From: Planctomycetales bacterium
GTDB lineage: Bacteria > 4484-113 > JAFGCY01
Reading direction: 5' to 3'
DNA length: 32,000 nt
NCBI GenBank assembly: GCA_022646745.1
Contig: CP060262.1
Location: 2,010,001-2,042,000, forward strand
Below, in pieces: positions 3,693-23,682 of this stretch (positions are counted from its first letter, which is position 1; each line of letters opens with the position of its first letter). The notes under the pieces were generated by a model. It was given only the letters and a program-made list of their open reading frames with translations. It was not told the origin of the DNA and did not search any database. Position numbers and translations under genes: made by a program.

Positions 3693-3701
3693 TGAAAGGA
3701 G

Positions 3702-3721
3702 GTCCGGCCGCCGAGCCGGAC
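3702..3721 (+). terminator. Stem-loop just after the stop of the giant protein gene (GTCCGGC-cgccga-GCCGGAC), no U-tract
   Basis: A perfect 7-bp stem starts 10 nt after the stop codon. With no T-run after it, intrinsic-terminator status is weak. Confidence 0.3.
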
Positions 3722-3728
3722 AATGGAA

Positions 3729-3749
3729 CAGTGGTCAGTAGTCAGTAAG
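3729..3749. repeat. Degenerate heptamer tract CAGTGGT CAGTAGT CAGTAAG (GTGGTCA/TGACCAC family)
   Basis: Period-7 repeat read directly from the sequence. It is inverted relative to the tract at 3864-3891. Confidence 0.8.
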
Positions 3750-3787
3750 AGAAGCAGAATGAGAATGAGAAACAGAATCAGAAGCAG
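3750..3787. repeat. Degenerate hexamer tract (AGAAnn)x6: AGAAGC AGAATG AGAATG AGAAAC AGAATC AGAAGC
   Basis: Period-6 repeat read directly. A near-identical tract at 14140-14175 encodes, on the minus strand, the hydrophobic core of a lipoprotein signal peptide. Confidence 0.8.
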
Positions 3788-3863
3788 GTTGTCAGAAACT
3801 GGTAAAGAAGACAACTGACCGCTATCTGCGGCTTCTGTTTCTGCCAACTAATTCTCCTTCTGA

Positions 3864-3891
3864 CGACTGCCCACTGACCACTGACAACTAA
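3864..3891. repeat. Degenerate heptamer tract CGACTGC CCACTGA CCACTGA CAACTAA
   Basis: Period-7 repeat read directly. It is the reverse-complement family of the tract at 3729-3749. Confidence 0.75.
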
Positions 3892-3912
3892 AAAGCCCCG
3901 CCGGAGCGGGGC
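3890..3912 (-). terminator. Rho-independent terminator for the minus-strand dockerin lipoprotein gene
   Basis: The minus strand reads GCCCCGC-tccg-GCGGGGC followed by TTTTT. It lies about 155 nt downstream of the stop at 4067. Confidence 0.6.
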
Positions 3913-4066
3913 ACAAGCAGACTTCAGGCTACAGACCGCAGACTTCAGAAAGTGACGCCAGACCTACCGCTCTCCTTGAGATAGATCTGGCGTCTGGTGT
4001 CTGAATTCTGTACTCTGTTTGTCAGCTTTTCAGCTGACATCCGCCAGGCTTACAGCCTGGCCACCA

Positions 4067-5776
4067 CTAGTTCACATTGATCTCGACGATGTTGCTCACG
4101 CGCTTGGCGAGGTCGAAGATCGTCACGCTCTCGCCGGGGCTGAACTCCGCCACCACGCTCACCTGGTCGCCACTGGACAGGTCGGTCGTTGCCAGCGTGG
4201 CACTGCCGCTGTCGAAGCTGGACGTGCCGGCGTTGGCACCATCCGGGATCACCGCCCAGGCAGCCCAGTCGGTCAGGTCGACATCACGGGTGATGGTCTC
4301 CTGCACCGTGCCGCCGCCGTCGAGGATCTCCAGCTGGAACGTGCCCATCGCGCTGAACACCACGTCGTCACCGGCGTTCACGCTGATCGGTCCGGTGCCG
4401 CCGCCGCTCAGTTCGATGTTGATGTCCTCGATGCTCAGCAGCAGGAAGCTCACCTCGTCGAATTGCAGGTTGTTGCCCGGCGCATGTGCACGCACGGTCA
4501 CGAGCCCGCGGTTGCGGAAGCTAAGCTGGCCCTTCGTGCCGGCGCTGTCGCTGACGGCGGCGCTGTTGCCGCCGGTCGGAACGGTCCAGATCAGCTGCTC
4601 AGTGGCATCAAACGGGTTGCCCGGGTCGGCATCGCTCTCGGCGGTGGCCGTCAGGCCGAGCATCTCGGGGGCGAAGTCCTCGGCGTTGCCAAGCACCTCG
4701 TCAACGCTGGCCTCGGTGATGTACACGATCGAGCGGCTGCCATCCACCTCAAGTGTCGGGGAGGCCGGCAGGCTGATGTTCACGTTGCTCAGCACGGGGG
4801 CTGCGGTCACGGCCTGCAGGAACAGCACGTTCGTGCTGCGGCTGCCCAGCGCGCCCGCGTTGTCAAAGTACTGCACTGCGAAGAAGGTGTCCTCCTCCAG
4901 CACATCGCCGACCCAGTTCCAGGTCAGCAGGCCGTCGGTGGTCTTCGGGCTCGGGAACTCATCGGCGCGGTTGACACGCACAAGCTCCGTCAGGCTGCCC
5001 TCACTGGCGCCGCTCAGGATCGCGTAGCCGGCCAGCCCGGTGCCGAGGTTGATGCCCAGCGGGGTCAGGTCGGAGATGGTCACGCTGCCATTGCGGTCGT
5101 AGTCGGCCTTGTCCGCCTGGCTGCCGGGGGTCACGCCCGTCGTGTTGAGCGAGATGCCCAGCGGGGTCAGGTCGGACAGGGTCACGAGCCCGTTGTTGTC
5201 ACCGTCGCCGGAGTTGATCTCTGGCCAGCTGATTTCCGGCTGGCCGGTGTTCTCACTCACGCTGCCCGCGATCTCGAATGCATTCGCGGCACCGGTCGGG
5301 GCCTTGGCGATGCTGCGTGCCAGCTGCTCGCTGCCCTCGCTGAAGCTCACCCGCGCGATCGCCTGGCGGCCGTCCAGGCCGGGGCGCACATCGAAATTCG
5401 CCAGCACCATGCCGAAGTTCAATCCATCCTCCAGCGGCTTGGCGAGGAACAGGGTGTCATCGCCGCTGGCCGTAAGCTGGGCCGACTCGAAGCTGTACTG
5501 CGAGCGGTCATAGCTCACCACGCCGTAAAGCGCCTTGGTGTCCTGCATCCCGCTGGCCACGATGTCGAAGCTGTACTGTCCGGCCGGTCCCGCTGCGGGC
5601 ACAAGCTCCAGGCTGACCGAACCGGCCGCGATGCTGTTATCGCGGTCCAGGCTGGCCGAGAAATCGCTCCCGCCGGCGTTGCTTCCCGCCGTGCCGCCGC
5701 CGCAGGACGCAGCGAGGCTGAGGGTCATCAGGGCCAGCAGGCTGGCCAGCAGCTTAATGCTCTTCATAAAAGGCAT
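4067..5776 (-). CDS. Secreted lipoprotein with a cohesin-like module and two dockerin-type repeats
   Basis: The N-terminus MPFMKSIKLLASLLALMTLSLAASCGGG contains a lipobox (LAAS-C). Dockerin-like repeats GDGDNNGLVTLSDLTPLGISL and DYDRNGSVTISDLTPLGINL lie at about nt 5043-5212. The start could instead be the MKSIKLL Met at 5767. The 605-aa plus-strand ORF opposite is Arg/Ala/His-rich antisense noise. Confidence 0.85.
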   Translation of the reverse strand: MPFMKSIKLLASLLALMTLSLAASCGGGTAGSNAGGSDFSASLDRDNSIAAGSVSLELVPAAGPAGQYSFDIVASGMQDTKALYGVVSYDRSQYSFESAQLTASGDDTLFLAKPLEDGLNFGMVLANFDVRPGLDGRQAIARVSFSEGSEQLARSIAKAPTGAANAFEIAGSVSENTGQPEISWPEINSGDGDNNGLVTLSDLTPLGISLNTTGVTPGSQADKADYDRNGSVTISDLTPLGINLGTGLAGYAILSGASEGSLTELVRVNRADEFPSPKTTDGLLTWNWVGDVLEEDTFFAVQYFDNAGALGSRSTNVLFLQAVTAAPVLSNVNISLPASPTLEVDGSRSIVYITEASVDEVLGNAEDFAPEMLGLTATAESDADPGNPFDATEQLIWTVPTGGNSAAVSDSAGTKGQLSFRNRGLVTVRAHAPGNNLQFDEVSFLLLSIEDINIELSGGGTGPISVNAGDDVVFSAMGTFQLEILDGGGTVQETITRDVDLTDWAAWAVIPDGANAGTSSFDSGSATLATTDLSSGDQVSVVAEFSPGESVTIFDLAKRVSNIVEINVN

Positions 5777-5865
5777 CCTCGGAAACTCAGATTTGCGCGC
5801 CGGAACGCATCCGGCAGTGTGTCCGCCACCATTTAATTATATACCCGCAGGGGGCACTGCCGCCC

Positions 5866-7266
5866 TTACTGACCCGTCCCGCCGCTGCGCTGTTCCCGCC
5901 ACTGTGTGCCCTTGCGGCCCTCCAGCGCTGCGTCACCCGTCAGCCTCCGGTAGCAGTCCAGCACCGCGTCCACCGCCCGCTGCGCAGCCCCGCGGTTGCG
6001 CAGGGTCAGCTCCCTGGCCCGCTGCCCGATGCGAATGCGCGCGTCCACGTCCTCCATCAGCGCTGCCAGCCGGCCCGGGGCCTGCCCGGCCTCCGCCTCC
6101 ACCACTGCATCGGAGCGCCTCAGCATCTCCATCTGCGAGGTGATGCCGAAGGTATGCGGCCCGACCAGCACCGGCTTGCCCAGCACCGTGGCCTCGAGGA
6201 TGTTGTGCCCGCCCACCTTCTTGTTGTACGTGCCGCCCATCACCACCACGTCGGCGAAGCGGTACATGTCCACCAGCACGCCGTAGCGGTCCACCAGCAG
6301 CACATCCCAGCCTGGCGCTGGCTTGCCACCACTGCCGGACTTCGCCTTCTTCGACTTGCCCTTGCCGGCCTTGCCCTTCGCAGGCGCAGGCGCCACATCC
6401 GCCAGCTTCACGCATTTCAGCTTGTTGCGCTCGCACAGCTTCTGCACTTCATCCACGCGCTCGATATGGCGCGGCGCGAGGATCAGCCGGGCCCCAGGGC
6501 TGTCCAGGCGCACCTGCGCCAGGCAGTCCAGCACCACTTCCTCCTCGCCGGGATGCGTGCTGCCGGCCGTGATCACCGGCTCGTCCCCCAGCCCGATCGC
6601 CGCGCGCTCGGTGGCCATCCGGCTTTCGCCCCAGTCCTCCAGCTCGAAGTCGAACTTGATGTTGCCGCTCGAAACCAGCTTCTCCGGCGGGATCGCGAAC
6701 TTGATGTAGTTCAGCCAGTGCGTCTTGTCCTGCGTCACGATCAGGTCGCACAGCTCAATCAGCTGCTGCAGGATCACCTTGCGCATGCCGGTCTTGTTGT
6801 GCAGGTACAGCCGCCCGTTCACGAGGCAGACCGGGATCCCGCGCTCGCGGCAGAGCGCTTGGATGTTCGGCCACAGCTCGGCTTCGGTGGTGATGTACAG
6901 GTCGGGGCGCAGCTTGTCGAGGTAGCGCGTCACGGCGCTTGGATGGTCCACCAGCGGGAACCAGGCGACGTATTCCACGAGGCCCGCGAGCTTGCCTTGC
7001 GCCATGGTGCGCCCGCTTTGCGTGGTGGTCAGGAGCACGATGTTGCATTCACCGATCGCCTGGCGCAGCTCACGGATGAAAGACGAGATCGCCACCACCT
7101 CGCCGGCGCTCACCGCATTGATCAGCACGTTCATACCGGGCAGGCTCGGGTCGTAGCCCTCCGGTTCGAAGTAGCCGCGCCGCGCCGCTATCGTGCCGCG
7201 AAAGGGCGGGTAGAGGTACAGGAGCGGCCAGAAGATGCGGACCAGCAGGTTGTAGATGGACAGCAC
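5866..7266 (-). CDS. waaA: 3-deoxy-D-manno-octulosonic acid (Kdo) transferase
   Basis: Blocks match my recollection of E. coli WaaA: LINAVSAGE (cf. HSVSVGE), TTEAELWPN (cf. METELWPN), GSTHPGEEE (cf. TSTHEGEE), LILAPRHIER, and GGHNILEATVLGKPVLVGPHTF (cf. GGHNPLEAAAHAIPVLMGPHTF). The start codon is GTG. Confidence 0.88.
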   Translation of the reverse strand: MLSIYNLLVRIFWPLLYLYPPFRGTIAARRGYFEPEGYDPSLPGMNVLINAVSAGEVVAISSFIRELRQAIGECNIVLLTTTQSGRTMAQGKLAGLVEYVAWFPLVDHPSAVTRYLDKLRPDLYITTEAELWPNIQALCRERGIPVCLVNGRLYLHNKTGMRKVILQQLIELCDLIVTQDKTHWLNYIKFAIPPEKLVSSGNIKFDFELEDWGESRMATERAAIGLGDEPVITAGSTHPGEEEVVLDCLAQVRLDSPGARLILAPRHIERVDEVQKLCERNKLKCVKLADVAPAPAKGKAGKGKSKKAKSGSGGKPAPGWDVLLVDRYGVLVDMYRFADVVVMGGTYNKKVGGHNILEATVLGKPVLVGPHTFGITSQMEMLRRSDAVVEAEAGQAPGRLAALMEDVDARIRIGQRARELTLRNRGAAQRAVDAVLDCYRRLTGDAALEGRKGTQWREQRSGGTGQ

Positions 7267-7272
7267 GGGCTG

Positions 7273-7278
7273 ATTATA
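7273..7278 (-). promoter_or_regulatory. -10-like TATAAT 6 nt upstream of the waaA GTG start (possible leaderless mRNA)
   Basis: The minus strand reads TATAAT-cagccc-GTG. No Shine-Dalgarno sequence is present. Confidence 0.4.
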
Positions 7279-7334
7279 GTGGTGAGTGGTCGGTGGTCAG
7301 TGGTCAGCGGGTTTCGGGTTGCGGGTTTCGGAAT
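7279..7334. repeat. Heptamer tracts: GTGGTGA GTGGTCG GTGGTCA GTGGTCA, then GCGGGTT TCGGGTT GCGGGTT TCGGAAT
   Basis: Strict period 7 read directly. The first half is inverted relative to 7994-8035, and the second half is the reverse complement of the family at 14509-14546. Confidence 0.85.
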
Positions 7335-7343
7335 CACATATTT

Positions 7344-7371
7344 GGGTAGCGGTGGCGCCCTGCGCCAATTG
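7344..7371 (+). repeat. REP element (GTAG + GGCGC-cct-GCGCC hairpin), plus orientation
   Basis: Read directly. GTAG is at 7346-7349. Confidence 0.75.
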
Positions 7372-7416
7372 ATAGTGCATGATGCGAAATTTACAAATAT
7401 GTGATATATTTGCAAT

Positions 7417-7905
7417 ATGTTGCCATTGCAGCCAAAGCTGATGCGTAAGTCCGATCACAACTACCGTACTCCGGGCTACTACTTCATCACGCTGAAGACC
7501 GCTGGCTCACGGAACCTGTTTGGCAGGTATGAAAGTGGCAATGATGTAATCCTGTCACGCTTCGGAAGGATTGCCCTTGAGTGCTGGCACCGTAATGATG
7601 AGGTGTACCAGACCGTAAGCAATGATCTGTATCGCTTCATGCCCAATCACATGCACGCCTTGCTTATGCTGGAATTTGGCGAGAGCACACGGGATGCGGG
7701 AGTACACCTGAGCAAGGTCGTGACATCCTACAAGGGTGTTGTCACAAAGGAAATCCGCAGGTTGACGGGGAATGCGGATATGCAGGTCTGGCAACGGAAC
7801 TACTACGAACGGATAGTCACATCGGAAAGGGCCCTGCAGAACATCCGCAGCTACATTCTCTACAATCCGCTGATGATTGAACTGGAAGGCAAGGGTCTGC
7901 GCTGA
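7417..7905 (+). CDS. rayT: REP-associated tyrosine transposase (RAYT, IS200/IS605 TnpA-like Y1 HUH enzyme)
   Basis: The protein is 162 aa with an HUH motif MPNHMHALL (nt 7648-7656 = H-M-H). It has a C-terminal catalytic-Tyr region WQRNYYERIV and ends in the YILYNPL motif typical of this family. MRKSDHNY at 7441 is an alternative start. Confidence 0.85.
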   Translation: MLPLQPKLMRKSDHNYRTPGYYFITLKTAGSRNLFGRYESGNDVILSRFGRIALECWHRNDEVYQTVSNDLYRFMPNHMHALLMLEFGESTRDAGVHLSKVVTSYKGVVTKEIRRLTGNADMQVWQRNYYERIVTSERALQNIRSYILYNPLMIELEGKGLR

Positions 7906-7947
7906 TTGCCTGAATCCTCAGTCGAGGTAGCCTGGTGCATCCACTCC

Positions 7948-7975
7948 CAGTTGGCGCAAGGCGCCACCGCTACCC
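7948..7975 (-). repeat. REP element, minus orientation (inverted partner of 7344-7371)
   Basis: The plus strand reads CAGTTGGCGCAAGGCGCCACCGCTACCC. CTAC is at 7970-7973. Confidence 0.75.
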
Positions 7976-7993
7976 TGACCCTTGCACCGTTTC

Positions 7994-8035
7994 CATCTGA
8001 CCACTGACCACAGACCACTGACTACTTCCCACTGA
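7994..8035. repeat. Heptamer tract CATCTGA CCACTGA CCACAGA CCACTGA CTACTTC CCACTGA
   Basis: Period 7 read directly. It supplies the last codons (..MVSGK) and the TAG stop (8022-8024) of the anti-sigma-like ORF. Confidence 0.85.
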
Positions 8036-8735
8036 CCATGCTCGCCTTCTTCATGTAGTCCTTCTCGCGGCCGATCAGCGTGATGTCGCTCGGGTTCACC
8101 GCGCCCTTGTCCAGCCACTGCGTCTCCTGCCAGGCGCGCACCACGTTGCGCTCGATCGCGCTCTTGTCCCCCATCCGGTAGGCGATCATGTCGCGCACCT
8201 TCACGCGGTAGGGGATCAGCGGCTGGTCGTAGCTGTAGTAGCAGTCCTGCATCCACTCCTCGCGCTCCATCACGCTGCGGAACCAGCTGTTGGCCTCGGA
8301 GTAGTCCACCCCGATGATGCCGAGCTGCATGGTGTAGCGGCCGTACTCGTTCTCGTAGTAGTCCACCACGAGGCTGTGCCCGCCGTGCTCCGCGAGCTCC
8401 GGGGTGTACTTCGAGATGATGCCCAGCACATGCGGGTAGTTCACCGGCTGGAAGTCCGCCGGCAGCTGGATGTTGATCTGCTGCGCGTCGTCGTAGGGGG
8501 CCAGCGTGAGCGTCGAGCTCCAGGCGCCGACCGCCGCCAGCGCCATCACCAGCACCGCCAGCCTGAAGCCGAGGCGCATGCTGCCCTGCGGACGGCGGCG
8601 CGGCTCCTGCTTCAGCATGTTCTCCAGGTGCAGACGGCTGATCTGCGGGTCGACTTCCTTCTCCAGGCGCTCGAACACGCCGAAGATCAGCTTCTCGGCC
8701 TCGCTCTGGGGGTTCTTATTGAACTCGTTATTCAT
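8022..8735 (-). CDS. Single-pass membrane protein co-transcribed with the ECF sigma factor (putative anti-sigma factor)
   Basis: Its start overlaps the sigma gene stop by 8 nt. It has a cytoplasmic N-terminus, one TM helix (LGFRLAVLVMALAAVGAW) and an extracytoplasmic domain of about 150 aa. No canonical HxxxCxxC zinc motif is present. Confidence 0.6.
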   Translation of the reverse strand: MNNEFNKNPQSEAEKLIFGVFERLEKEVDPQISRLHLENMLKQEPRRRPQGSMRLGFRLAVLVMALAAVGAWSSTLTLAPYDDAQQINIQLPADFQPVNYPHVLGIISKYTPELAEHGGHSLVVDYYENEYGRYTMQLGIIGVDYSEANSWFRSVMEREEWMQDCYYSYDQPLIPYRVKVRDMIAYRMGDKSAIERNVVRAWQETQWLDKGAVNPSDITLIGREKDYMKKASMVSGK

Positions 8736-9333
8736 TTGTCGTCTCCTGCACTACTGTCCCGTGAGAGAAAGGGAGGGCACCCTCCGGCACCATCGCGGCC
8801 AGCTTCTTCCTGGCCCGGTACGCACATTGGATCACTGCACGGGAGCTGATGCGGTGGATTGCCGCCACCTCGTCGGGCGAAAGGTCGCCCGGGCCGAGGA
8901 GCAGGAGCGTTTCGCGCTCGCGCGGGTTCAGCCGTCCCAGCAGTTCTCTGGTCAGGGTCAGCTGGTAGCCGAGCTCGGCGGGGTCATTGCTTACAAGTTT
9001 GGTGGCTTCCCAGAAACTATATGCACCCGCGGGCTCGGCTACCAGTGAGATTCGCCGCAATCTGTCACGATTGCGCTGGTTTCGGAATCCGTTCAGGAGG
9101 ATCGAGAAGAACCATTCCCTGAACTTGTCCCGGCTCCGAAGCTGGTGGAACCGGCTGTAAGCCTTGAGCACTGCATCGCTTGTCAGGTCCTCGCCGTCGA
9201 TCAGGCTGCCTGAAATGGCCTGGGCGTAGGCGAGGGCCTTGGGGTAGACGGGCGCGAGCAGCTCGAGGAACTCAGCCTGACGCGCAACCGTCGCCTGGTC
9301 CTCATTGCTACTGCTGTGATGCCCTTGACTCAC
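8728..9333 (-). CDS. ECF-family RNA polymerase sigma-70 factor
   Basis: The region 2-like segment is DLTSDAVLKAYSRFHQLRSRDKFREWFFSILLNGFRN. The region 4 HTH segment is LNPRERETLLLLGPGDLSPDEVAAIHRISSRAVIQCAYRARKKL. The start codon is GTG. Confidence 0.85.
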   Translation of the reverse strand: MSQGHHSSSNEDQATVARQAEFLELLAPVYPKALAYAQAISGSLIDGEDLTSDAVLKAYSRFHQLRSRDKFREWFFSILLNGFRNQRNRDRLRRISLVAEPAGAYSFWEATKLVSNDPAELGYQLTLTRELLGRLNPRERETLLLLGPGDLSPDEVAAIHRISSRAVIQCAYRARKKLAAMVPEGALPFSHGTVVQETTNE

Positions 9334-9367
9334 GATAAAGCTGACAGCCTTCCACTGTGCGGGTAAC

Positions 9368-9396
9368 GGAAATTTCCGGAGATTCCGGAAATTTCC
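9368..9396. promoter_or_regulatory. Two perfect 10-bp palindromes GGAAATTTCC spaced 19 bp apart, upstream of the ECF sigma gene (candidate operator/promoter element)
   Basis: The copies are at 9368-9377 and 9387-9396, which is 35-63 nt upstream of the sigma start at 9333. Confidence 0.35.
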
Positions 9397-9402
9397 AGGT
9401 TT

Positions 9403-9509
9403 CAGGGACCTGGGACCTGGGATCAGCAGGTAGCAGGTGCCTGGGTTCAGTAGGGATCAGGTCTCAGGGCGCTTGTATTCGATCCCTGGTCCCCGGTCCC
9501 CGGTACCTG
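9403..9509. repeat. Heptamer tracts of the GGGACCT/AGGTCCC family forming inverted arms
   Basis: The left arm is CAGGGAC CTGGGAC CTGGGAT CAGCAGG TAGCAGG and onward (9403-9470). The right arm is ATCCCTG GTCCCCG GTCCCCG GTACCTG (9482-9509). The arms are imperfect reverse complements. Confidence 0.8.
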
Positions 9510-9551
9510 ATTATAAGGTGCTGGGAGGGGGGAGGCAAGGGGGAAATAGAT

Positions 9552-9579
9552 TTGACAAATGATGTGCTACACTTAGCTT
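9552..9579 (+). promoter_or_regulatory. Candidate sigma70-type promoter for the island gene (TTGACA-N16-TAGCTT)
   Basis: TTGACA at 9552-9557 is a perfect -35 and TAGCTT at 9574-9579 is a weak -10. TATAAG at 9610-9615, 5 nt before the ATG, is an alternative -10. In AT-rich DNA such matches arise by chance. Confidence 0.3.
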
Positions 9580-9620
9580 TTCTCAGCTCGTTATGAATCC
9601 AAGATTACATATAAGATGCC

Positions 9621-12600
9621 ATGAAGTTAACTGATCTTTACACTTTCAATAAGTTTTCAATAAAAGAAGCTGGTCCAAAGTATAGTCCGGGTATAGCTGA
9701 AGGTGCGCCAAATATTGAGATAAACGAGCTTGTAGAATTCTTAGACGCACTCTGTCTAAATGAAAATTTTAAACTAGCATTTAAAACAATTAATAATGAA
9801 CTAACAAATATATCAATTTATCATAGTAGAATCGTAAATGGTCTGTTCTTAAATAACAAGCATACACCAGCAACACTATCTAAATCACTTAGTAAGGTAA
9901 TACAAAGCAGAACAACAGAAAATCTAGAAGCAGAATTATCTCACGCTAAGAGGGCATACACTTTCATATCTAGAAAAATTTCCAATAGACTAAAAGCGGT
10001 AAGGAAAATAGCAAGAGAAAGAGAGCCTAACAACACTAGAGACTCCGAGTATGAAAGATTACAATCGGAAATAAGTGCTTTGAGAGAATACTCCCTAGTT
10101 TCAAACAAACTCAAAGTGTTTTTCGCCGGTGACTATGAACAAGTCATTTTTGCTCAAAACCATATTCTCTTGACAGGAGAATGGGGAACTGGAAAAACTC
10201 ACTTCTTATGCGATATGGCCTTGCGGTATGAAAAGCTTGGGTTACCGGTGTTGCTAGTGTTAGCAAACAACCTAAAAACAGTTAATGATCCCTTTGCTGA
10301 AATTTCAAATCTAGTGAAGATAGAAAAAAATTCTTCAGCTTTCCTAAAGAATTTGAATAAGATTGCAAAGCAGAAGAAAGTTAGAGCCTTGATTTTGCTT
10401 GACGCAATAAATGAGAGCGATAGAAAATACTGGCATCGAAACATGAAATTTATCATCAATACTTTGAAGGCGTACAAAAATCTGCGCCTGGTAGTTTCTT
10501 GTAGAACTCCGTTTGAGGAGCAGATAATTAATCAAAGCACTCAAAGAAAGTTTACAAAGATTAATCATATGGGATTTCAAGATAATGAGTTCAACGCGCA
10601 GATTGAATTCTTCAAACACTATGAAATTCCTCTGTCCTTTGTGCCATTACTTGTTCCGGAGTTTACTAAACCACTTACATTGAAAATGTTGTGTGAAGAC
10701 CTGAAAGATTACTCTACACCTTGGCAAAAGAGAAAATTAAAAATTCTCATTTCAGGGCAGAGAGGAATGACTACAATTTTGGAGAATTATATTGTCAAGA
10801 AGGGTGGAGAAATAGAAAAGAAATTCAGTCTGCCTACAAAATCATGTTGGTTCTTTATTAAAGGAAAGGGCAGCAATTTGGATCTATGTATAGCTGCGAG
10901 GATGGCATCGCAGTCGAAGAGTTGGCTAAAAAGAGATGAAGTGCAACAAATTGCTCAGCAATTTTTTGCGTTCAATAACGATGAATCATCTGCATTTGTT
11001 GCATCACTAATTGAGGGGGGCATTCTAAAAGAAGAGCTCAAATGGGAACCGAATAAATTCGTTGAGGCAATAACGTTTCCATATCAAAGATTTGGTGATC
11101 ATATAATTGCTAGACATCTTATGAACAATTATTTGAATTTAGAATCAGATATTCATATCAGCAGAAGTTTTTATCGAAATCGAGTCTTAGGCAAATTGTT
11201 TTATAGTGAATTCAATAATTATAGTGTTTCAGAGCCAGGACTAATAACTGCAATAATGCTAGAATTACCTGAGAGATTAAAGAAAAGAAAAGGAAAGTCC
11301 GAGCTATTTGCGTTTTTGCCTAAGGACGTTTTGAGGAGAAAAAATGCATTACTAAATCAGTTATTTATAAGTGGTTTGTCTTGGAGAAGCACAGACGCGA
11401 TCACTGAAGAAACTGAAGATAAAATACATATTTTGTTGAAAACCGATGATACATACATAAAGAACTTATGCTTTACAACATTAGTTGGTTTGTGTTTAAG
11501 AGTTAATCACAAACTATCTTCTAAATGGTTGTGGGACTATCTTATTAATTTATCAATGCAAGATCGAGATCTACTATGGTCAGAATTCTTGAGAGATTAC
11601 CAGGGTGTTGAGTCTATAGAGCAGGTGTTTAGTTGGTGTGAAATTAAGAAACATGAATTTGACAAAGAAACTGTACTGCTATTAGTCAATGTCCTATCGC
11701 TGGTATTAACCAGCTCAAACCGACATTTAAGAGATGCTGCCACTAAACAAATCGTTTTGCTAGGCGATCATCAGCCTGAAGTGATTTTTGGTCATATTCT
11801 CAAGTGCATTGAAGTTGAGGATGTTTATATCAGCGAGCGCATGATTGCGGCTGGATATGGAATAGCCATGAGGTGGTGGGGAAAAGCTGATAACCAATCG
11901 CTACGCAAACAGATTTGCAATCTTGCAATCAGTATTGTAGATAGGGTTTTTAGTGACGATTGTGAAAAGAGTGTTTTGCATTCACTTGTATGTAGTTACT
12001 CACGTGGTTTGATAAACATTGCTGCTCAAATTGATCCTTCTTCATTAGAAATTCAAACTCGAGTAATTGATTCTCAAACAAATTCAACTCTATGCTCACC
12101 TTTCCCAAAGAGGAGTAGTATTAGAAATAATATCGAGGAAGTAGTAAGTGATGCAATTCGCATGGATTTTGCTAACTATACTCTTGGTAAACTTGTTCCA
12201 GATCGACGAAATTATGATTTTAGTGACAATAGGTATATTGGATTAAAAAAACAGATTGCCAAGAGGATGCGTGATTTAGGTTATGATCGAGAGATTTTTC
12301 AGTCAATAGATGATGAAATAGGGAGATTTCATACCGGGTACTATCAAGATGAAAAACCGTCTCGAATAGATCGATATGGAAAAAAGTATTCTTGGATTAC
12401 CTACTATGAAATGTTTGAAGTGCTTCATCGGCAGGATCGCTTAGGTTTAGATGAACTGCAATTAACAGATCTCGATATTGATCCGAGTTTTCCTGATGTG
12501 CCTATTTCTTGGATGCCTAAGTTGCAAGTGTATCGCGACGATGGTATTAAGAAAAAGAATGAATGGTTAGTGCGCGGCAAAAGTCCATTCCATACTAATT

Positions 12601-13334
12601 TGTTGTGCAAGCAAATTGTTGACAATTACAGGGGGCCTTGGATATTGTTAGATGCATTCATTGATTTGGATGGAGATGCTAAGCGAAATACAATTTCATT
12701 TATTAATACAATATTGGTTGGCAAGGAAAGTAGGGATACTGTAATTTGTGGATTGTTGAAGAGAGATTATTTGGGAAATGGTTCAATCACTGTAGATGAT
12801 GATGACCACTATGTTTTCGCAGGAGAGGTTCCTTGGTCCACCAAGTTTGCAAGTCATTTGCGTGATGCAAGTGGCGGTGCTATTAGAAAGACTAAAGAAT
12901 TACGTTTTGATCACAATGATCAAAACGTAATTCACGTTGATGTTCCAGTGCACTCGGTAAACTGGGAAGACTATCACAGTTCCGTTAGTACAGGTAGATC
13001 ATACACTACATTAGCCCCACATCTTTCTCAGCTTTTGGATCTCCATTCAGTCAAGGGATCTATAGATTTGTTTGATAGAAAAAATGATTTAGCAACAATC
13101 TATAGAGTGTTTAAATGTAGTGATGATGATTATTTTTATAATCATTTGCTATATGTCAGATCTGATTTGCTGTCGCGATATTTAAATGCAATCAACAGAA
13201 GTTTACTTTGGGTGGTTTGGGGTGAAAGAAGAGTACTTGATGATGATTCCAGATATAATCACTTGATTGCCGAAACATACAGAAGTAACTTGAACAATTT
13301 TTCCAGGTGCTATGAACTCTACTTTAGGTCATAA
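9621..13334 (+). CDS. Large STAND-class (NACHT-like) P-loop NTPase with uncharacterised N- and C-terminal regions
   Basis: This 1237-aa ORF is the only long ORF in the island. The Walker A is GEWGTGKT (nt 10176-10199) and the Walker B is RALILLDAINESD (10383-10421). A sensor-1-like motif LRLVVSCRTP (10482-10511) is followed by MGFQDNEFNAQIEFFKHY. A HEAT-like helical region includes NRHLRDAATKQIVLLGDHQPE. Codon usage is AT3-rich, unlike all neighbouring genes. Confidence 0.9.
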   Translation: MKLTDLYTFNKFSIKEAGPKYSPGIAEGAPNIEINELVEFLDALCLNENFKLAFKTINNELTNISIYHSRIVNGLFLNNKHTPATLSKSLSKVIQSRTTENLEAELSHAKRAYTFISRKISNRLKAVRKIAREREPNNTRDSEYERLQSEISALREYSLVSNKLKVFFAGDYEQVIFAQNHILLTGEWGTGKTHFLCDMALRYEKLGLPVLLVLANNLKTVNDPFAEISNLVKIEKNSSAFLKNLNKIAKQKKVRALILLDAINESDRKYWHRNMKFIINTLKAYKNLRLVVSCRTPFEEQIINQSTQRKFTKINHMGFQDNEFNAQIEFFKHYEIPLSFVPLLVPEFTKPLTLKMLCEDLKDYSTPWQKRKLKILISGQRGMTTILENYIVKKGGEIEKKFSLPTKSCWFFIKGKGSNLDLCIAARMASQSKSWLKRDEVQQIAQQFFAFNNDESSAFVASLIEGGILKEELKWEPNKFVEAITFPYQRFGDHIIARHLMNNYLNLESDIHISRSFYRNRVLGKLFYSEFNNYSVSEPGLITAIMLELPERLKKRKGKSELFAFLPKDVLRRKNALLNQLFISGLSWRSTDAITEETEDKIHILLKTDDTYIKNLCFTTLVGLCLRVNHKLSSKWLWDYLINLSMQDRDLLWSEFLRDYQGVESIEQVFSWCEIKKHEFDKETVLLLVNVLSLVLTSSNRHLRDAATKQIVLLGDHQPEVIFGHILKCIEVEDVYISERMIAAGYGIAMRWWGKADNQSLRKQICNLAISIVDRVFSDDCEKSVLHSLVCSYSRGLINIAAQIDPSSLEIQTRVIDSQTNSTLCSPFPKRSSIRNNIEEVVSDAIRMDFANYTLGKLVPDRRNYDFSDNRYIGLKKQIAKRMRDLGYDREIFQSIDDEIGRFHTGYYQDEKPSRIDRYGKKYSWITYYEMFEVLHRQDRLGLDELQLTDLDIDPSFPDVPISWMPKLQVYRDDGIKKKNEWLVRGKSPFHTNLLCKQIVDNYRGPWILLDAFIDLDGDAKRNTISFINTILVGKESRDTVICGLLKRDYLGNGSITVDDDDHYVFAGEVPWSTKFASHLRDASGGAIRKTKELRFDHNDQNVIHVDVPVHSVNWEDYHSSVSTGRSYTTLAPHLSQLLDLHSVKGSIDLFDRKNDLATIYRVFKCSDDDYFYNHLLYVRSDLLSRYLNAINRSLLWVVWGERRVLDDDSRYNHLIAETYRSNLNNFSRCYELYFRS

Positions 13335-13502
13335 GTGGTTTGGGTGGATTTGCAAATGTTTTATTTCTGTATAGGAAATAGTGTTTTACCTCAGCATGCA
13401 ATTCACAACTAGTCCTGTATATTTACAAGCAGCAATGACTTTTGTTCAAAATAGCACTGATAGTGAAAAATAGCATACTCAATCATTACTTTTATTAGCG
13501 TC

Positions 13503-14222
13503 TCACTCCCCACCGCCATTCGGCGGTTCAATCACCAGCACTGCGGCGCTTGTATTGAAGTCCTGGTAGCTGGCGCGGGCCACATACGTTCCCACCTCGT
13601 CGGGCAGCTGCCAGTTGATTTCAGTGCCGCTTTGCACCGTCAATGATATGACCGCATTGCCGCCACTGTCAAGCAGTGTGCCCGACTCAACCGTGACGCG
13701 GATATCCGGTGGCACAAGCGTGGTGGATGCCCCGCGCCAGGCCCCCGGCAGGGGAATCAGGTAGGGTGTGGCCGTGGCATGCGCTGTATCGGTCGGCGAC
13801 TGGACGTCGTTCGGCGACTGGACGTCGGTCGGCGGCAGGGGTGCCGCCGCTACACTGAGGTGTTCTCCACTGCACCCAGCAACCAGCAACCTGCAAGCAG
13901 TCGGCGACTGGAAGTCGCCGCTACAGTTCCCCGGTCCTAGATCCCTGCCTGCGGTCCCCGGTCCCTGGTCCCCGGTCCCTGCAACGCAGCTTGCAGCCGC
14001 CGATGTCGAGCTGGTCTGCGCGCGTGGGGTGATCGTCACGATGCTGCCGCGCACCGCCGTGGTTGGTGCTTCGAGGATGATGCCGGTCACCGTCACCGGG
14101 TTGGAGGATGCCCCGCCGCCACCGCATGAAGAAGCTGGCAGAAGCAGAAACAGAATGAGAAACAGAAGCAGCAGGGAGGTGAGACAGCGATGAGAGCCTT
14201 GTCTGTTGAGCTTGATGCGCAT
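13503..14222 (-). CDS. Small Ig-like (Big_2-like) lipoprotein interrupted in frame by a REP/short-repeat cluster
   Basis: The track ORF extends to 14282, but the likely start is MRIKLNRQGSHRCLTSLLLLFLILFLLLPASSCGGGG at 14222, with lipobox PASS-C. Beta-rich flanks are VTVTGIILEAPTTAVRGSIVTITPRA and IRVTVESG...GTYVARASYQDFNTSAAVLVIE. The middle ~65 codons (13793-13982) consist of repeat DNA. Confidence 0.6.
   Translation of the reverse strand: MRIKLNRQGSHRCLTSLLLLFLILFLLLPASSCGGGGASSNPVTVTGIILEAPTTAVRGSIVTITPRAQTSSTSAAASCVAGTGDQGPGTAGRDLGPGNCSGDFQSPTACRLLVAGCSGEHLSVAAAPLPPTDVQSPNDVQSPTDTAHATATPYLIPLPGAWRGASTTLVPPDIRVTVESGTLLDSGGNAVISLTVQSGTEINWQLPDEVGTYVARASYQDFNTSAAVLVIEPPNGGGE
13793..13982. 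repeat. Composite repeat cluster: 18-bp direct repeat x2, two GTAG-hairpin REPs (minus orientation) and a GGTCCCC-family heptamer tract
   Basis: TCGGCGACTGGACGTCG(T/G) occurs at 13793-13810 and 13811-13828. One REP, GGCGGCAGGGGTGCCGCCGCTAC, is at 13831-13853. A REP variant, GGCGACTGGAAGTCGCCGCTAC, is at 13903-13924. Heptamers occupy 13927-13982. Confidence 0.8.
14140..14175. repeat. Hexamer tract AGAAGC AGAAAC AGAATG AGAAAC AGAAGC AGCAGG, the second copy of the family seen at 3750-3787
   Basis: Read directly. Its reverse complement encodes LLLLFLILFLLL of the lipoprotein signal peptide. Confidence 0.8.
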
Positions 14223-14284
14223 GGAGGGATGATAACTCATCCAGGGTGCAGGTTGCTGGTTGCAGGGGGCAGGAAAAGTCACTT

Positions 14285-14476
14285 AGTCACTGAGTCAATT
14301 AGTCAATCACCTCCGTTGAGCTATGTTCGATGAGTTTGGTTGACTTATGGACTTATTGACTGAGAGTTCAAGAGTCAACAACTTACGTTTGCGATCAGCT
14401 AGAAGTGAGTGGTTGACTTCTTGACTTAGTGACTGATTGACTTAGTGACTGATTGACTTAGTGACTGCTTGACTGC
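14285..14476. repeat. Octamer/16-mer tracts of the AGTCA/TGACT family
   Basis: AGTCACTG AGTCAATT AGTCAATC lies at 14285-14308. TTGACTTAGTGACTGA occurs three times, plus TTGACTGC, at 14421-14476. Scattered TTGACT copies lie between these two tracts. Confidence 0.8.
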
Positions 14477-14480
14477 GCCC

Positions 14481-14571
14481 GGCGGCAAGGGTGCCGCCGC
14501 TACGCGCTCCGGATACCGAAACCGGAAACCCGAAACCGGAAACCGGTCGGCGGCAAGGGTGCCGCCGCTAC
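14481..14571 (-). repeat. BIME-like cluster: REP, then a CCGAAAC-family heptamer tract, then a second REP
   Basis: GGCGGCAAGGGTGCCGCCGCTAC occurs at 14481-14503 and again at 14549-14571. CCGGATA CCGAAAC CGGAAAC CCGAAAC CGGAAAC lies at 14509-14546. The second REP's CTAC provides the TAG stop of the radical SAM ORF. Confidence 0.8.
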
Positions 14572-16703
14572 GGAAGTTTGCTCGACGCGCCGCCGTCCAC
14601 TTCGCTTTCAGTTCCGCCCGTGCGCTGGATGTTGACAGCGGGCTTCACTCGCACGCCGCCGCTGCCAATCTCCAGTGGTGAGTCCGAGTGTTGTGCGACT
14701 TGCGCCGCACCTCCTTGTGCGACTTGCGCCGCACCTCCCCGATCAAGCTCCTCCGGGTAGACCGGTGAGAAGGGCCGCAGGCCGCGCTGTTCCGCGATGC
14801 CCTGGCGCGCCACCTCGGCGAAGTACTCCTTCAGTTCCTCCGGCACCACGCGGCTCTCCGGGTCGAACACCGGGGCCGCGCAGCCGATGCCGCAGCTGGT
14901 GCACTCCACATGGCAGGCCGGGTTGGCATCGCCGGAGTGGTAGTACTCCCACTCGCGCCACAGGTAGCGCTTGCCAACGCCGCGCGAGATGTGGTCCCAG
15001 GGGAGGGTGTCCGCATACTGCTTGTCCTCGTGCACCTCGCCCTCGAGGTCGAAGCCCCACTCGCTGCAGATGTCCTTCCAGACCGACAGCTCGAAGTTGT
15101 CAGACAAGAGCGTCTGCCCGCGCCGGAAGGCCTCCTCGATGATGCCGGCCACTTCGCGTCCGCCGCGTGACAGGAGCGTCTCCACCACGCCTTCCTCGGC
15201 GTCGTGGTACTTGAAGATGCACTGCCGGCCGTAGCGCTTCAGGAGGTCCAGCAGGCGCGCCTGCTTCTCGCGCGTGATCGCCGTGCGCTCCATGCCCTGC
15301 CACTGCAGCGGCGTATGCGGCTTCGGGATCAGCACCGAGCACGAGATTGTCAACCGTGGGCGGCGGTGCCCCTTCTCCTTCGCCATATCGAAGATCTTGC
15401 CAACCAGCTCGGCGATCTCATCCATCGCCTGCATCGGCTCGCCGGCGAAGCCCATCATGAAGTACAGCTTGAACTTGTGCCAGCCGGCCTGCATCAGCAG
15501 GTCGAATGTGTACAGCACATCCTCCTCGCTGACACCCTTGCGGATCGCACGCCGCGCGGCATCACTGCCGGCCTCGATGGCGATCGTGAGCGAGGTCTCG
15601 CGCGGGCGGCGCATCATCACGGACAGCTCCGCGCTCATGCGGTCAGCGCGCAGGCTGGGCAGGGCCACGCCGACGTCCTCGGGCAGCGCGGCCTTGACGC
15701 TCTCGACGAGCTGGTAGACCTGCGGGTGGTCCAGTGTTGACAGCGACATCAGCGCGACTTCATCCGCGCCGGTCTTGTTGATCAGCTCGACGGCGGCCTT
15801 CGTCAGGTCCTCCACGGTGCGTGCACGCGCCGGCCGCGTGATGTAGCCGGCCTGGCAGAAGCGGCAACCCTGCGGGCAGCCGCGCATCACCTCTAGGTAG
15901 ACCTTGTCGCTCGGGATCTCGATGAAGCTCTGCACCGGGTTGAGCGGCGGCATGCTCATCGCGAAGTCCTTCGCATAACCGCGCTTGACGCGCAGCGGCA
16001 TGCCATCGCGGCTGGGGCGGGTGCGCAGGTGTTTGCCCGCCTCGTCATATTCACATTCATAGAAGCGCGGCAGGTACACGCCCTCGATGTCGCGCAGGGC
16101 GTACAGGCGCTCCTCGCGCGGCAGGCCCTTCGTGGCCTTCAGGCTGTCGATGATCTCATCGAGGATGCTCTCGCCCTCGCCGTTGACAACCACGTCGAAG
16201 AAGGGCGCGATCGGCTCGGCGTTGCACATGCACTGCCCGCCGGCGATCACGATCGGGTCGTCGTCGCTGCGCTCGAGGCTGCGCAGCGGGATGCCGGCCA
16301 GGTCGAGCACCAGCAGGCCGGAGGGGTAGGCCATCTCGAAGGTGAAGGAGATGCCAATCGCGTCGAACTCACGCAGGCTGCGCTTGTTCTCAAGGCTCCA
16401 CAGGGCGACGCCCTTTTCTCGCATCATCTCCTGCATGTCGGGGCCGGGCACGAAGCTGCGCTCGCAGAGGCAGTCCTCGCGGCCGTTGATGTGCTGGTAG
16501 ATGATCTCCCGGCCGTGGTAGCTCATGCCGAGCTCGTAGAGGTCGGGAAAGACGTAGCAGAAGCGGAAGTCCACCGAGTCCCAGTCCTTGCGGATCTGGC
16601 CGAGCTCCTCGCCGATGTAGCGCGCGGGCTTCTGCACGAGGCGCAGGTCCGGGCGGATCAGGCGCTCGAAGTCGGACGGGGAGTGGTGTGTTGCATTCTG
16701 CAT
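14568..16703 (-). CDS. B12-binding-domain radical SAM protein of a widespread uncharacterised family (TIGR03960-like from memory)
   Basis: It carries a CPQGCRFCQAG (CxxxCxxC) cluster motif. The N-terminus reads VQKPARYIGEELGQIRKDW...FPDLYELGMSYHG...DDPIVIAGGQC..NGEGE, typical of that family. The last ~60 codons (14568 to about 14760) are encoded by repeat DNA and may not be ancestral. Confidence 0.88.
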   Translation of the reverse strand: MQNATHHSPSDFERLIRPDLRLVQKPARYIGEELGQIRKDWDSVDFRFCYVFPDLYELGMSYHGREIIYQHINGREDCLCERSFVPGPDMQEMMREKGVALWSLENKRSLREFDAIGISFTFEMAYPSGLLVLDLAGIPLRSLERSDDDPIVIAGGQCMCNAEPIAPFFDVVVNGEGESILDEIIDSLKATKGLPREERLYALRDIEGVYLPRFYECEYDEAGKHLRTRPSRDGMPLRVKRGYAKDFAMSMPPLNPVQSFIEIPSDKVYLEVMRGCPQGCRFCQAGYITRPARARTVEDLTKAAVELINKTGADEVALMSLSTLDHPQVYQLVESVKAALPEDVGVALPSLRADRMSAELSVMMRRPRETSLTIAIEAGSDAARRAIRKGVSEEDVLYTFDLLMQAGWHKFKLYFMMGFAGEPMQAMDEIAELVGKIFDMAKEKGHRRPRLTISCSVLIPKPHTPLQWQGMERTAITREKQARLLDLLKRYGRQCIFKYHDAEEGVVETLLSRGGREVAGIIEEAFRRGQTLLSDNFELSVWKDICSEWGFDLEGEVHEDKQYADTLPWDHISRGVGKRYLWREWEYYHSGDANPACHVECTSCGIGCAAPVFDPESRVVPEELKEYFAEVARQGIAEQRGLRPFSPVYPEELDRGGAAQVAQGGAAQVAQHSDSPLEIGSGGVRVKPAVNIQRTGGTESEVDGGASSKLP
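14691..14738. repeat. Perfect 24-bp tandem duplication TTGTGCGACTTGCGCCGCACCTCC x2 inside the 3' tail of the radical SAM ORF
   Basis: Read directly. It encodes GGAAQVAQ twice on the minus strand. Confidence 0.85.
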
Positions 16704-23328: not shown

Positions 23329-23398
23329 GGCCTTGTCCCCCGGATTGCAAGCTGACTGAGTTTATCAGACAGTGCTCAGGGCTGGCATTTATTCTGAA

Positions 23399-23577
23399 GA
23401 TCAGGTGGCATGCCGCCGCTGAGTCACTGTGTTCACTGTTGTCATCCTTTCGGATGGCCGCCCGGCGGCGTGGGCGCCGCCGCTACTGATTACTTTATCC
23501 AGACTCCCCACTCCAAACACCAAACTTCCCAGGATCAGGTGGCAGCATGCCGCCGCTAAGTCACTGTGTTCATTGGT
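23399..23577. repeat. Two ~42-bp direct repeats (GATCAGGTGGCA(GC)ATGCCGCCGCT(G/A)AGTCACTGTGTTCA) 134 bp apart, enclosing one GTAG-hairpin REP
   Basis: The copies start at 23399 and 23533. The REP GGCGGCGTGGGCGCCGCCGCTAC lies at 23464-23486 in minus orientation. Confidence 0.75.
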
Positions 23578-23629
23578 AACTGCTTGATGAAGACTGTTGC
23601 CAGACCCTCGTCATGCCCCGGTCGCTTTG

Positions 23630-23671
23630 CCATTCCATGGGAATGGCCTCCTGTCAGGCCATGGGCCTGAC
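23630..23671. repeat. Twin short hairpins, each with an ATG loop
   Basis: CCATTCC-atg-GGAATGG is at 23630-23646. GTCAGGCC-atg-GGCCTGAC is at 23653-23671. Confidence 0.7.
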
Positions 23672-23682
23672 CTCCCTAAACC

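Follow-up and report, generated by a model that had tools for sequence, protein, structure and literature searches.

Short-period tandem tracts arranged as inverted pairs in the intergenic spacers of a Planctomycetales bacterium

Introduction

What are the degenerate tandem tracts, with periods of 6, 7 and 8 nt, that recur between the genes of a GC-rich bacterium, and why do so many of them face an inverted copy of themselves? The tracts lie in a 32,000-nt stretch (the window) from a Planctomycetales bacterium (assembly GCA_022646745.1, contig CP060262.1, positions 2,010,001 to 2,042,000 of the forward strand), where a preliminary description named five families between positions 3729 and 14546: the heptamers CTGACCA, GGTCCCC and CCGAAAC, the hexamer AGAAnn and the octamer AGTCAnnn/TTGACTnn. 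Inverted pairing is their main organizing principle; most tracts are the two arms of long imperfect palindromes, which keep their intergenic positions in four related genomes, while the unit often differs, both arms changing together. On balance we think it probable that the tracts are long simple-sequence repeats derived by slippage, which form the arms of palindromes that co-evolve by template switching.

For comparison, contigs were retrieved by exact-protein look-ups. They include the window's own species (L001-L006), a second strain (L343/L344; nucleotide identity to the window 97.3 % across kdtA and the lipoprotein gene next to it, 95.2 % in the fn3 gene) and three more distant lineages at ~70-83 % amino-acid identity (L339; L340 and L007; L341).

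Results

Tracts exceed expectation and are dominated by heptamers

Arrays were called with Tandem Repeats Finder (TRF; score >=30, periods 6-8, overlapping calls merged). The window contains 19 merged arrays covering 566 nt, whereas 100 shuffles that preserve dinucleotides average 1.8 arrays and 31 nt (maxima 6 arrays and 106 nt); the tracts are thus more frequent than composition predicts. Within 3729-14546 fall 16 of the 19. Only five of the ~12 spacers of at least 80 nt bear tracts, and all five belong to the window's left half.

Two-unit probes, allowing at most two mismatches, were run over the whole window. CTGACCA gave 12 matches (0.24 expected; 3732, 3860-3887, 7280-7307 and 7997-8038), GGTCCCC 7 (0.25 expected; 9404, 9481-9508 and 13953-13980) and CCGAAAC 6 (0.14 expected; 7311-7331 and 14516-14543). 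The two AGAAnn hexamer tracts (3750-3784 and 14140-14174) share 89 % identity over 35 nt, and octamer tracts are present at 14277-14305, 14342-14361 and 14413-14474. By TRF and by probe, the recurrence of the five families is far above chance at the loci first listed for them, and the probes matched no other place except one stray each for the CTGACCA family (31478) and the CCGAAAC family (16738). The GGGACCT heptamers had been drawn as 9403-9470; they hold as far as 9422, and the remainder (9423-9470) is weakly heptameric, with a TRF period of 24 nt. Two families were absent from the earlier list, CAGACTT (3918-3949) and GCAACCA/CAGGTTG (13872-13900 and 14242-14266), together with an 18-nt repeat (13789-13834) and a 10-nt palindromic repeat (9367-9396).

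At least ten unrelated unit sequences occur in one genome. Across 99 kb from five genomes of the lineage, 38 TRF rows have period 7, vs 6 with period 6 and 7 with period 8, and the tracts of this lineage are ~38-fold enriched outside open reading frames (ORFs). The tracts therefore display the excess over composition, the heptamer predominance and the non-coding concentration of the 5-11-nt long simple-sequence repeat class. There are also higher-order periods (14, 16 and 21 nt), which fits the prediction of multi-unit slippage.

Most tracts are arms of long palindromes

The inverted pairing noted in the preliminary description is borne out by the inverted repeats I2, I5, I7 and I12. All tract-bearing spacers that were folded, a set without the pair split by the REP-associated tyrosine transposase (RAYT) cassette, beat every one of their shuffles (z -3.2 to -8.1). 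Tract palindromes and two families of repetitive extragenic palindrome (REP) hairpins make up the bulk of several intergenic spacers.

A composite palindrome identified by TRF and RNA folds spans 160 nt (3729-3889) in the spacer 3693-4066. Its left arm consists of heptamers (3729-3749) and then hexamers (3750-3787), its center is a small hairpin (3788-3815), and its right arm returns through inverse hexamers (~3832-3862) to inverse heptamers (3860-3889). As RNA, 3693-3920 folds at -91.2 kcal/mol on the plus strand (z -6.6) and at -103.5 kcal/mol on the minus strand (z -8.1). On the left, 6 nt past the stop of ORF 135-3692, stands a REP-II type hairpin, GGAGG-TCCGGCC...GGCCGGA-CAAT (3698-3724; stem 3702-3708/3715-3721 in RNA folds), and the GGAGG-stem-CAA(T) design is found in L007, L339, L340 and L343 as well. 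On the right follow the intrinsic terminator of the minus-strand lipoprotein gene 4067-5776 (GCCCCGCtccgGCGGGGC then TTTTT; 3895-3912, conserved in L339, L340 and L343) and, in the 3' untranslated stretch of the same gene, the CAGACTT tract called by TRF (4.6 copies, 3918-3949), which L343 keeps with point changes.

Upstream of kdtA, one palindrome arm on the minus strand, CTGACCA x4.3 (7278-7307), runs in register into CTATAAT and the GTG start codon. The partner arm, CTGACCA x6 on the plus strand (7997-8038), overlaps the end of ORF 8022-8735 (final codons and stop); the two arms are 74 % complementary over 57 nt (I2), with the RAYT cassette in between. The tract supplies the -35-like hexamer of a promoter-like site, CTGACC-16-TATAAT (10/12 matches), being placed upstream of, and including, the -35-like box and not between -35 and -10. 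Next to it, CGGGTTT x3.4 (7308-7331) adjoins the left REP of the cassette and is 88 % complementary to 14512-14537 (I7).

Before the extracytoplasmic function (ECF) sigma factor gene 8728-9333, a GGGACCT tract (9405-9422, degenerate to 9470) and an inverse GGTCCCC tract (9483-9504) form one hairpin (9405-9504), with arms that pair across ~60 nt (-73.6 kcal/mol, z -4.9). The hairpin lies downstream of a promoter-like TTGCCT-17-TATAAT on the minus strand (9538-9510) and is predicted to be within the leader of the sigma gene. The leader also holds a perfect palindrome, GGAAATTTCCGGAatcTCCGGAAATTTCC (9367-9396). As a separate observation, this palindrome sits just upstream of a conserved GTTACC...GGAAGGCTGTCAGC motif and is kept in three lineages with wholly changed stems (9367-9396; L340 441-470; L341 612-636); it may serve as an operator or form a leader hairpin.

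A further inverted pair encloses the 5' end of the small lipoprotein gene 13503-14222: CAGGTTG x3.6 (14242-14266) is the partner of 13872-13900 (I5: 26 nt, 92 % complementary, 351 nt apart). Beyond it lies an octamer-armed palindrome (14277-14474) built from AGTCAnnn (14277-14305), GACTTATG (14342-14361) and TTGACTnn x7.8 (14413-14474, with a 16-nt higher-order period), in which the octamer arrays pair (fold 14223-14580, z -6.65). The spacer ends in a composite of REP-I, CCGGAAA x5.6 (14509-14546) and REP-I, the two REPs in direct orientation (14481-14571).

Positions persist in related genomes while units change

The region upstream of kdtA gives the clearest comparison. In all four genomes (the window, L340, L341 and L343), approximately four heptamers run in register into CTATAAT and the start codon. 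The units read CTGACCA, CTGACCA, CCGACCA, CTCACCA in the window, where the other arm is ~690 nt away across the RAYT cassette; CTGACAA, CTGGCCA, CTGATAA, CTGACCA in L341, where the other arm consists of ~22 GTAGTCA/GTGATCA units only 10 nt away; and CCTAGAA, CCTAAAA, CCTAGCA, CCTAGAA in L340, where TTCTAGG units form the other arm at 56 nt. L343 has CTGCCCC, CTGCACC, CTGTAAC, CTGCAAC, and its contig ends before any partner arm. The second arm matches the first in each of the three genomes with upstream sequence, and the adjacent arms fold strongly in L340 (z -6.9) and L341 (z -7.5). The -10 heptamer of L340, CCTATAA, is one base off the array consensus, as expected for a local seed. Separately, the kdtA start appears to lie 6-8 nt 3' of the conserved CTATAAT box and to be GTG in three genomes and ATG in L341 (box and start at 7266-7275 in the window, 1942-1954 in L340, 2228-2247 in L341 and 225-240 in L343); because the start is so close downstream of the box, the sequence suggests that kdtA mRNA may be leaderless or near-leaderless.

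The sigma leader behaves in the same way. The promoter-like site is conserved in L340 (TTGCCT-17-TAGAAT), and both the window and L340 have this site, then a tract hairpin, then a perfect palindrome, with every stem differing in sequence; the arms at the equivalent place in L340 are CTAGGAG and CCCTACT/CCTAAAT. After the lipoprotein terminator, L339 carries a composite heptamer-plus-hexamer hairpin at the orthologous place, with the same unit families as the window; the spacer holds an NNTCAGA/TCTGANN pair in L341 and a RAYT cassette with a different REP in L340. Past the radical SAM gene, the order REP, heptamers, REP is found in the window with CGGTTTC units and in L007 with GGGACCG x3.1.

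Turnover is visible even between close strains. Despite the 97.3 %/95.2 % identity of the flanking genes, the spacer cores of the window and L343 are unalignable, and the core at 3729-3889 is replaced in L343/L344. Within the species, the octamer array of L004 is shorter by exactly one 16-nt double unit. The copy-number comparison between strains that had been suggested as a sign of slipped-strand variation thus gave one clean unit-number polymorphism, the sole one seen. In the more distant relatives L008-L010 (~66 % identity), no such tracts were found. The tracts are not confined to the window, since the unrelated L007 locus has tracts of its own and exact (CTGACCA)3 occurs in at least 120 genome stretches.

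REP elements and the RAYT cassette

The RAYT cassette (7344-7975, plus strand) comprises a REP-I (7344-7381), a Y1 transposase gene (7417-7905) and an inverted REP-I (7938-7975). The gene product matches Pfam Y1_Tnp (E 2.5e-5) and NCBIfam REP_Tyr_transpos (E 1.5e-15; 57 bits, below the cut-off of 80), and the flanking REPs form a 38-nt inverted repeat that is 87 % complementary (I3). REP-I has the form GTAGCGG-stem-loop-stem and occurs as four copies, GTAGCGGCGGCACCCTTGCCGCC with its GTAG foot (13831, 14481, 14549 and 23464), besides the related inverted pair around the RAYT gene; REP-II has the form GGAGG-stem-loop-stem-CAA(T). REP-I is thus a GTAG-foot palindromic unit in several copies with a RAYT gene between inverted REPs, as in REP and bacterial interspersed mosaic element (BIME) systems. 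The tract units have neither an internal palindrome nor a GTAG foot and are themselves not REP units.

The preliminary description had tracts bracketing the RAYT gene. An inverted pair does lie around the cassette; the cassette, however, was apparently inserted between the arms of a palindrome that was already there. This order of events is suggested by L340 and L341, in which the arms upstream of kdtA are adjacent without cargo. In L340 the RAYT cassette occupies another spacer (5220-6090) with another REP type, GGAGCTCCGGATTTATCCGGGGTC, whereas the window REP has the GTAG foot. In both the window and L340 the cassette sits where relatives carry a tandem-repeat palindrome, and the loops of tract hairpins appear to be landing sites for it.

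A composite of CGGKTTY tract, GGWATC and GTAGCGG-REP is found twice in the window (7308-7381 and 14481-14571). In a set of 120 metagenome loci, from mixed organisms and chosen by the REP-I pattern, a tract of period 6-8 lies within 100 nt of only ~17 of 125 REPs. The REP-tract link is weak outside this lineage and not obligatory, and the idea that tracts are obligatory BIME-type linkers was dropped on account of this weak association.

Tracts inside genes

The preliminary description placed the tracts in spacers, and their bias toward non-coding DNA is indeed strong, but at least five tracts lie in frame inside a gene: the sequences at 13789-13982 and 14138-14175 are both within ORF 13503-14222. 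By alignment, the window protein, a small lipoprotein, has 239 aa and its L007 orthologue 131 aa. The extra residues are 15 in the signal peptide and an 89-residue insertion rich in Gly, Pro, Thr and Asp, located by translation and the L007 alignment at 13731-13997 on the minus strand; the insertion is in frame, its length is a multiple of 3 and it contains no stop codon. It is composed of the 18-nt repeat (13789-13834), a REP-I (13831-13853), GCAACCA x4.1 (13872-13900), a REP variant (13900-13924) and the GGTCCCC tracts (13927-13982). The hexamer tract, YTTCTG on the coding (minus) strand (14138-14175), encodes the hydrophobic core of the signal peptide, LLLLFLILFLLL.

REP-II is likewise found inside a gene. 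Two identical 24-nt copies (14691-14738, minus strand; TRF 100 % match) lie in frame at the 3' end of the radical SAM gene, whose product thereby gains GGAAQVAQ twice in its C-terminal tail; L007 has one partial copy and L008 none. Hexamers 3750-3787 were also considered as a relic of signal-peptide coding sequence (minus-strand ORF 3650-3847). This was rejected, as the tract is in both arms (window and L339) and no lipobox is present.

In an observation of its own, the inverted repeat 13870-13895/14247-14272 flanks the beginning of the small lipoprotein gene (its start codon, signal peptide and N-terminal part) in a geometry like that of an invertible segment; no inverted variant of 13870-14272 was seen in L001, the sole other contig spanning both arms.

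A heptamer found across phyla

Exact (CTGACCA)3 was found in 68 IMG/VR stretches with G+C 0.32-0.69, most of them 0.55-0.69, vs 16 and 1 for two composition-matched permutations and 3 for (GGTCCCC)3. The apparent preference for CTGACCA is a lead, having two permutation controls only. In the genome collection, hosts among the matches listed include Acidobacteriota, Planctomycetota, Verrucomicrobiota, Chloroflexota, Cyanobacteria (Coleofasciculus, Microcoleus, Calothrix and Argonema), Bacteroidales and others.

We analyzed the 120 genome loci listed, which were selected for one (CTGACCA)3 tract and are unselected for orientation, ORF position and other families; the following figures refer to these listed matches. 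Period 7 again predominates, with 428 TRF rows (146 of the query family) vs 56 for period 6 and 71 for period 8. Where related heptamer arrays lie within 300 nt of each other, 62 cases are inverted and 10 direct. The hairpins have a median loop of 34 nt, a median arm-length ratio of 1.28 and a modal copy number of 4. ORFs cover 86 % of this DNA and hold 28 % of tract bases, a ~15-fold enrichment outside ORFs.

Apart from these counts, many GC-rich, heptamer-dense contigs are filed as viral in IMG/VR (loci L011-L078), which may be a repeat-driven misclassification.

Discussion

We propose the following course of events. Slipped-strand mispairing during replication would expand a short local seed by one or several units, the seed often lying beside an existing hairpin foot or promoter element. 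Template switching across the palindrome (quasipalindrome correction) would copy changes onto the opposite arm, thus making the two arms evolve together. Through the instability of long palindromes, spacer cores would be replaced fast while the position between conserved genes persists, and arrays would be purged from coding DNA except where the protein tolerates their translation, for example as the core of a signal peptide or as a Gly/Pro-rich linker. Once present, such pairs on single-stranded DNA or RNA may form highly stable hairpins with many possible pairing registers. These could work as REP/BIME elements do, as structures at transcript ends or in leaders, or else as insulators. Quasipalindrome template switching is familiar from Escherichia coli mutagenesis, and long palindromes are known to be unstable. 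The two arms could co-vary without selection through template switching within quasipalindromes, and the rapid replacement of cores fits the known instability. The observations are consistent with slippage: the periods come in unit steps and multiples of units, one polymorphism is a unit step, seeds are in register with the arrays, and coding sequence excludes the tracts except where translation is harmless.

Several points weigh against this account. Slippage alone explains neither the same units at separate loci nor the excess of (CTGACCA)3 over its permutations in IMG/VR (68 vs 16 and 1). The balanced arms and the four-unit mode could reflect selection for hairpins, not neutral dynamics, and whole-core swaps between strains that are 95-97 % identical look more like recombination or insertion than stepwise slippage. 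Clean polymorphism in unit number was seen once only. In addition, the folds showed no consistent bias toward the sense strand, the G-U signature of RNA-level selection, so a role at the RNA level is unsupported.

A functional role for the hairpins, like that of REP/BIME elements, is possible. Positional conservation and balanced arms would favor it; the mixed contexts, the strain differences and the lack of a sense-strand advantage weaken it. A rival reading holds that the tracts are selected regulatory arrays, either protein-binding sites or RNA/DNA structures that control transcription, termination or translation of their neighbors. Positions conserved in four lineages while both arms change together would be expected from it, as would balanced arms with a mode of four units among the matches listed. 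One tract provides the -35-like box of kdtA and another pair falls within what is predicted to be the leader of the ECF sigma gene, and there are precedents in Nostoc recO reporter data (bioRxiv 10.1101/2022.06.06.494920) and in the translational role proposed for TAACTGA repeats (PMC4679880). However, the contexts are very different (a leader, a place upstream of a -10 box, one downstream of a terminator, the inside of an ORF), many unrelated units speak against one binding protein, strains of the same species lack tracts or have replacements, and the hairpins are no more stable on the sense strand; moreover, no regulatory role emerged for the Xanthomonas repeats in the study of Rehm et al. 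(PMC4692102). We regard selected regulatory arrays as unlikely. A similarly tentative idea is that hairpins with arms of about four heptamers and a loop of ~34 nt are a distinct intergenic class shared across phyla, in which pairing is conserved. A dedicated process, perhaps linked to enzymes that handle hairpins, such as Y1 (RAYT) transposases, might produce or maintain these hairpins, which would then not be slippage debris. If so, units would turn over by concerted change of the two arms, and the tandem design would tolerate register shifts, allowing the hairpin to survive insertions and deletions.

It is also conceivable that the tract pairs are small non-autonomous mobile elements, or passengers of REPs, spread by the RAYT or another transposase, the units serving as repeated end-binding sites. 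Such spread would account for the same families at separate loci, for the presence of one heptamer in many phyla (among the matches listed) and for the wholesale exchange of cores between close strains. Within this lineage many tracts abut REP hairpins, REP, tract and REP share one place in the window and L007, the CGGKTTY-GGWATC-REP composite occurs twice, and a RAYT gene lies between two arms (I2, I3). Yet only the periodic arms are common to these loci. The features of a miniature inverted-repeat transposable element were not found: the interiors of 3729-3889 and 7278-8038 differ, and no duplicated flanks or target sites were seen. Ten or more unrelated units in one genome make a single recognition site unlikely, the kdtA arms of L340 and L341 are adjacent without cargo while RAYT stands in another spacer with a different REP, and only ~17 of 125 REPs in the metagenome loci selected by REP-I are near a tract. 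Mobility of this kind seems to us quite unlikely. Least probable is action through a G-quadruplex or i-motif, a proposal made for the GGGAATC repeats of Xanthomonas and the GGGGAYT repeats of Nostoc. The G-rich strand of the GGTCCCC family, GGGGACCGGGGACCAGGGACCGGGGACC (13953-13981) and GGGGACCGGGGACCAGGGA (9483-9504), has 3-4 G runs of 3-4 bases, and among all arrays only that at 13953-13981 reaches four runs of at least 3 bases. CTGACCA, CCGGAAA, AGAAnn, AGTCAnnn, CAGACTT and GCAACCA have no G runs, which excludes quadruplexes as a general explanation, and even the GGTCCCC tracts have complementary partners and fold as ordinary hairpins. Finally, CRISPR-like arrays (28-nt units, 34-nt gaps) were ruled out, since the partners are inverted rather than direct.

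Heptamer repeats have been on record in bacteria since 1990. Those of heterocystous cyanobacteria, the short tandemly repeated repetitive (STRR) sequences, have the canonical units CCCCAGT, TTGGTCA and CAACAGT; the window units GTGGTCA and CCCCGGT are each one base from TTGGTCA and CCCCAGT. The resemblance to STRRs drawn in the preliminary description holds in part: the window tracts are tandem, heptamer-dominated, of several families per genome, biased to non-coding DNA and often inverted, but they are not strict STRRs, as their units are noncanonical, hexamer and octamer families occur too, and the host is not a cyanobacterium but a GC-rich (~62 %) uncultured bacterium, whose KdtA is 100 % identical to a protein of a metagenome-assembled genome deposited as Planctomycetales bacterium. 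REP/BIME mosaics and REPINs offer another parallel, with spacers that are mosaics of palindromic units, GTAG-foot REPs and a RAYT gene with inverted REPs; a typical tract hairpin (~28-nt arms, 34-nt loop) is presumably of REPIN size. In contrast to these systems, the tract arms consist of tandem units that lack both an internal palindrome and a GTAG foot, and the link of tracts to REPs is not obligatory.

Xanthomonas is itself GC-rich. Its GGGAATC repeats form ~186 arrays per genome. Most of these have four units, and some are paired in inverse orientation; they lie between the same genes in related species with variable length and sequence, and no function was found for them (PMC4692102). Quadruplex formation has been proposed for them and for the Nostoc GGGGA(C/T)T repeats (Rehm et al. 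2015, PMC4692102). Among the groups richest in 5-11-nt repeats are Burkholderia and Actinobacteria (PMC4679880). The statement that such tracts had no description in a GC-rich genome therefore has to be withdrawn. According to PMC4679880 and PMC4692102, which both cite Mrazek 2007, 5-11-nt long simple-sequence repeats are a class in which heptamers are the most abundant and for which slippage related to the polymerase footprint was proposed. Like the Xanthomonas and Nostoc repeats, the window tracts have a strong non-coding bias, typically four units, and positions that are kept while length and sequence vary; unlike these single G-rich families, the window genome has at least ten, mostly without G runs, and inverted pairs, occasional there, are the rule here. 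TAACTGA direct repeats are common to Beggiatoaceae, cyanobacteria and Bacteroidetes, and a translational role has been proposed for them (MacGregor 2015, PMC4679880). They too are intergenic heptamer arrays in distant phyla, and arrays of the rotated unit AACTGAT occur in IMG/VR contigs with (CTGACCA)n. TAACTGA arrays, however, are direct, short and just upstream of start codons, whereas the window tracts are mainly inverted pairs in varied contexts. The Nostoc reporter data suggest that heptamer repeats modulate recO promoter responses, and the regulatory roles put forward there are speculative (bioRxiv 10.1101/2022.06.06.494920).

The heptamer long-repeat class is thus already known; what is new is a rich example in which the hairpin, not the unit sequence, persists. 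No function or mechanism of origin has so far been established for bacterial heptamer repeats, in agreement with the preliminary description as to function (PMC4692102, PMC4679880), and the comparative picture here is unusually clear. With the same positions, complementary arms, core replacement within a species and in-frame copies, the choice between slippage debris and a selected hairpin becomes testable.

Other features of the window

The tracts have practical consequences, as they break short-read assemblies here and inflate ORF calls. The short-read contigs L002 and L003 break off within the octamer array, and L342 stops at the heptamer array that precedes kdtA.

The gene map was based on Pfam, NCBIfam and PADLOC scans of the window. 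From left to right it shows an fn3-containing surface protein (135-3692, plus strand), the lipoprotein (4067-5776, minus), KdtA (5866-7266, minus), the RAYT (7417-7905, plus), an ORF of unknown product (8022-8735, minus), the ECF sigma factor (8728-9333, minus), an Avs2-like STAND ATPase (9621-13334, plus), the small lipoprotein (13503-14222, minus) and a TIGR03960 radical SAM protein (14568-16703, minus). Rfam (at gathering thresholds) and ARAGORN gave no match anywhere in the window. Base composition is ~60-66 % G+C except for a 36 % island at ~9.5-13.4 kb, on which the Avs2-like gene lies.

This gene encodes a 1237-aa Avs2-like STAND/NACHT ATPase (PADLOC Avs2, E 4.8e-158; island 9510-13450). 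The match begins at about profile position 180, and the usual N-terminal part may be missing. L007 has another AT-rich gene at the same position, which suggests that the site is a hotspot for the acquisition of defense genes.

Farther right, the 600-nt spacer 23329-23955 has one REP-I copy and is free of short-period tracts and of Rfam matches; it contains a 31-nt direct repeat (23408 and 23545). A 136-nt tandem repeat (2.1 copies, 92-95 % identical) lies at 23683-23972. Repeats with a period of 324 nt run within long minus-strand ORFs that have no Pfam match (28100-29350 and also 29411-30981); they are probably tandem domains of a surface protein.

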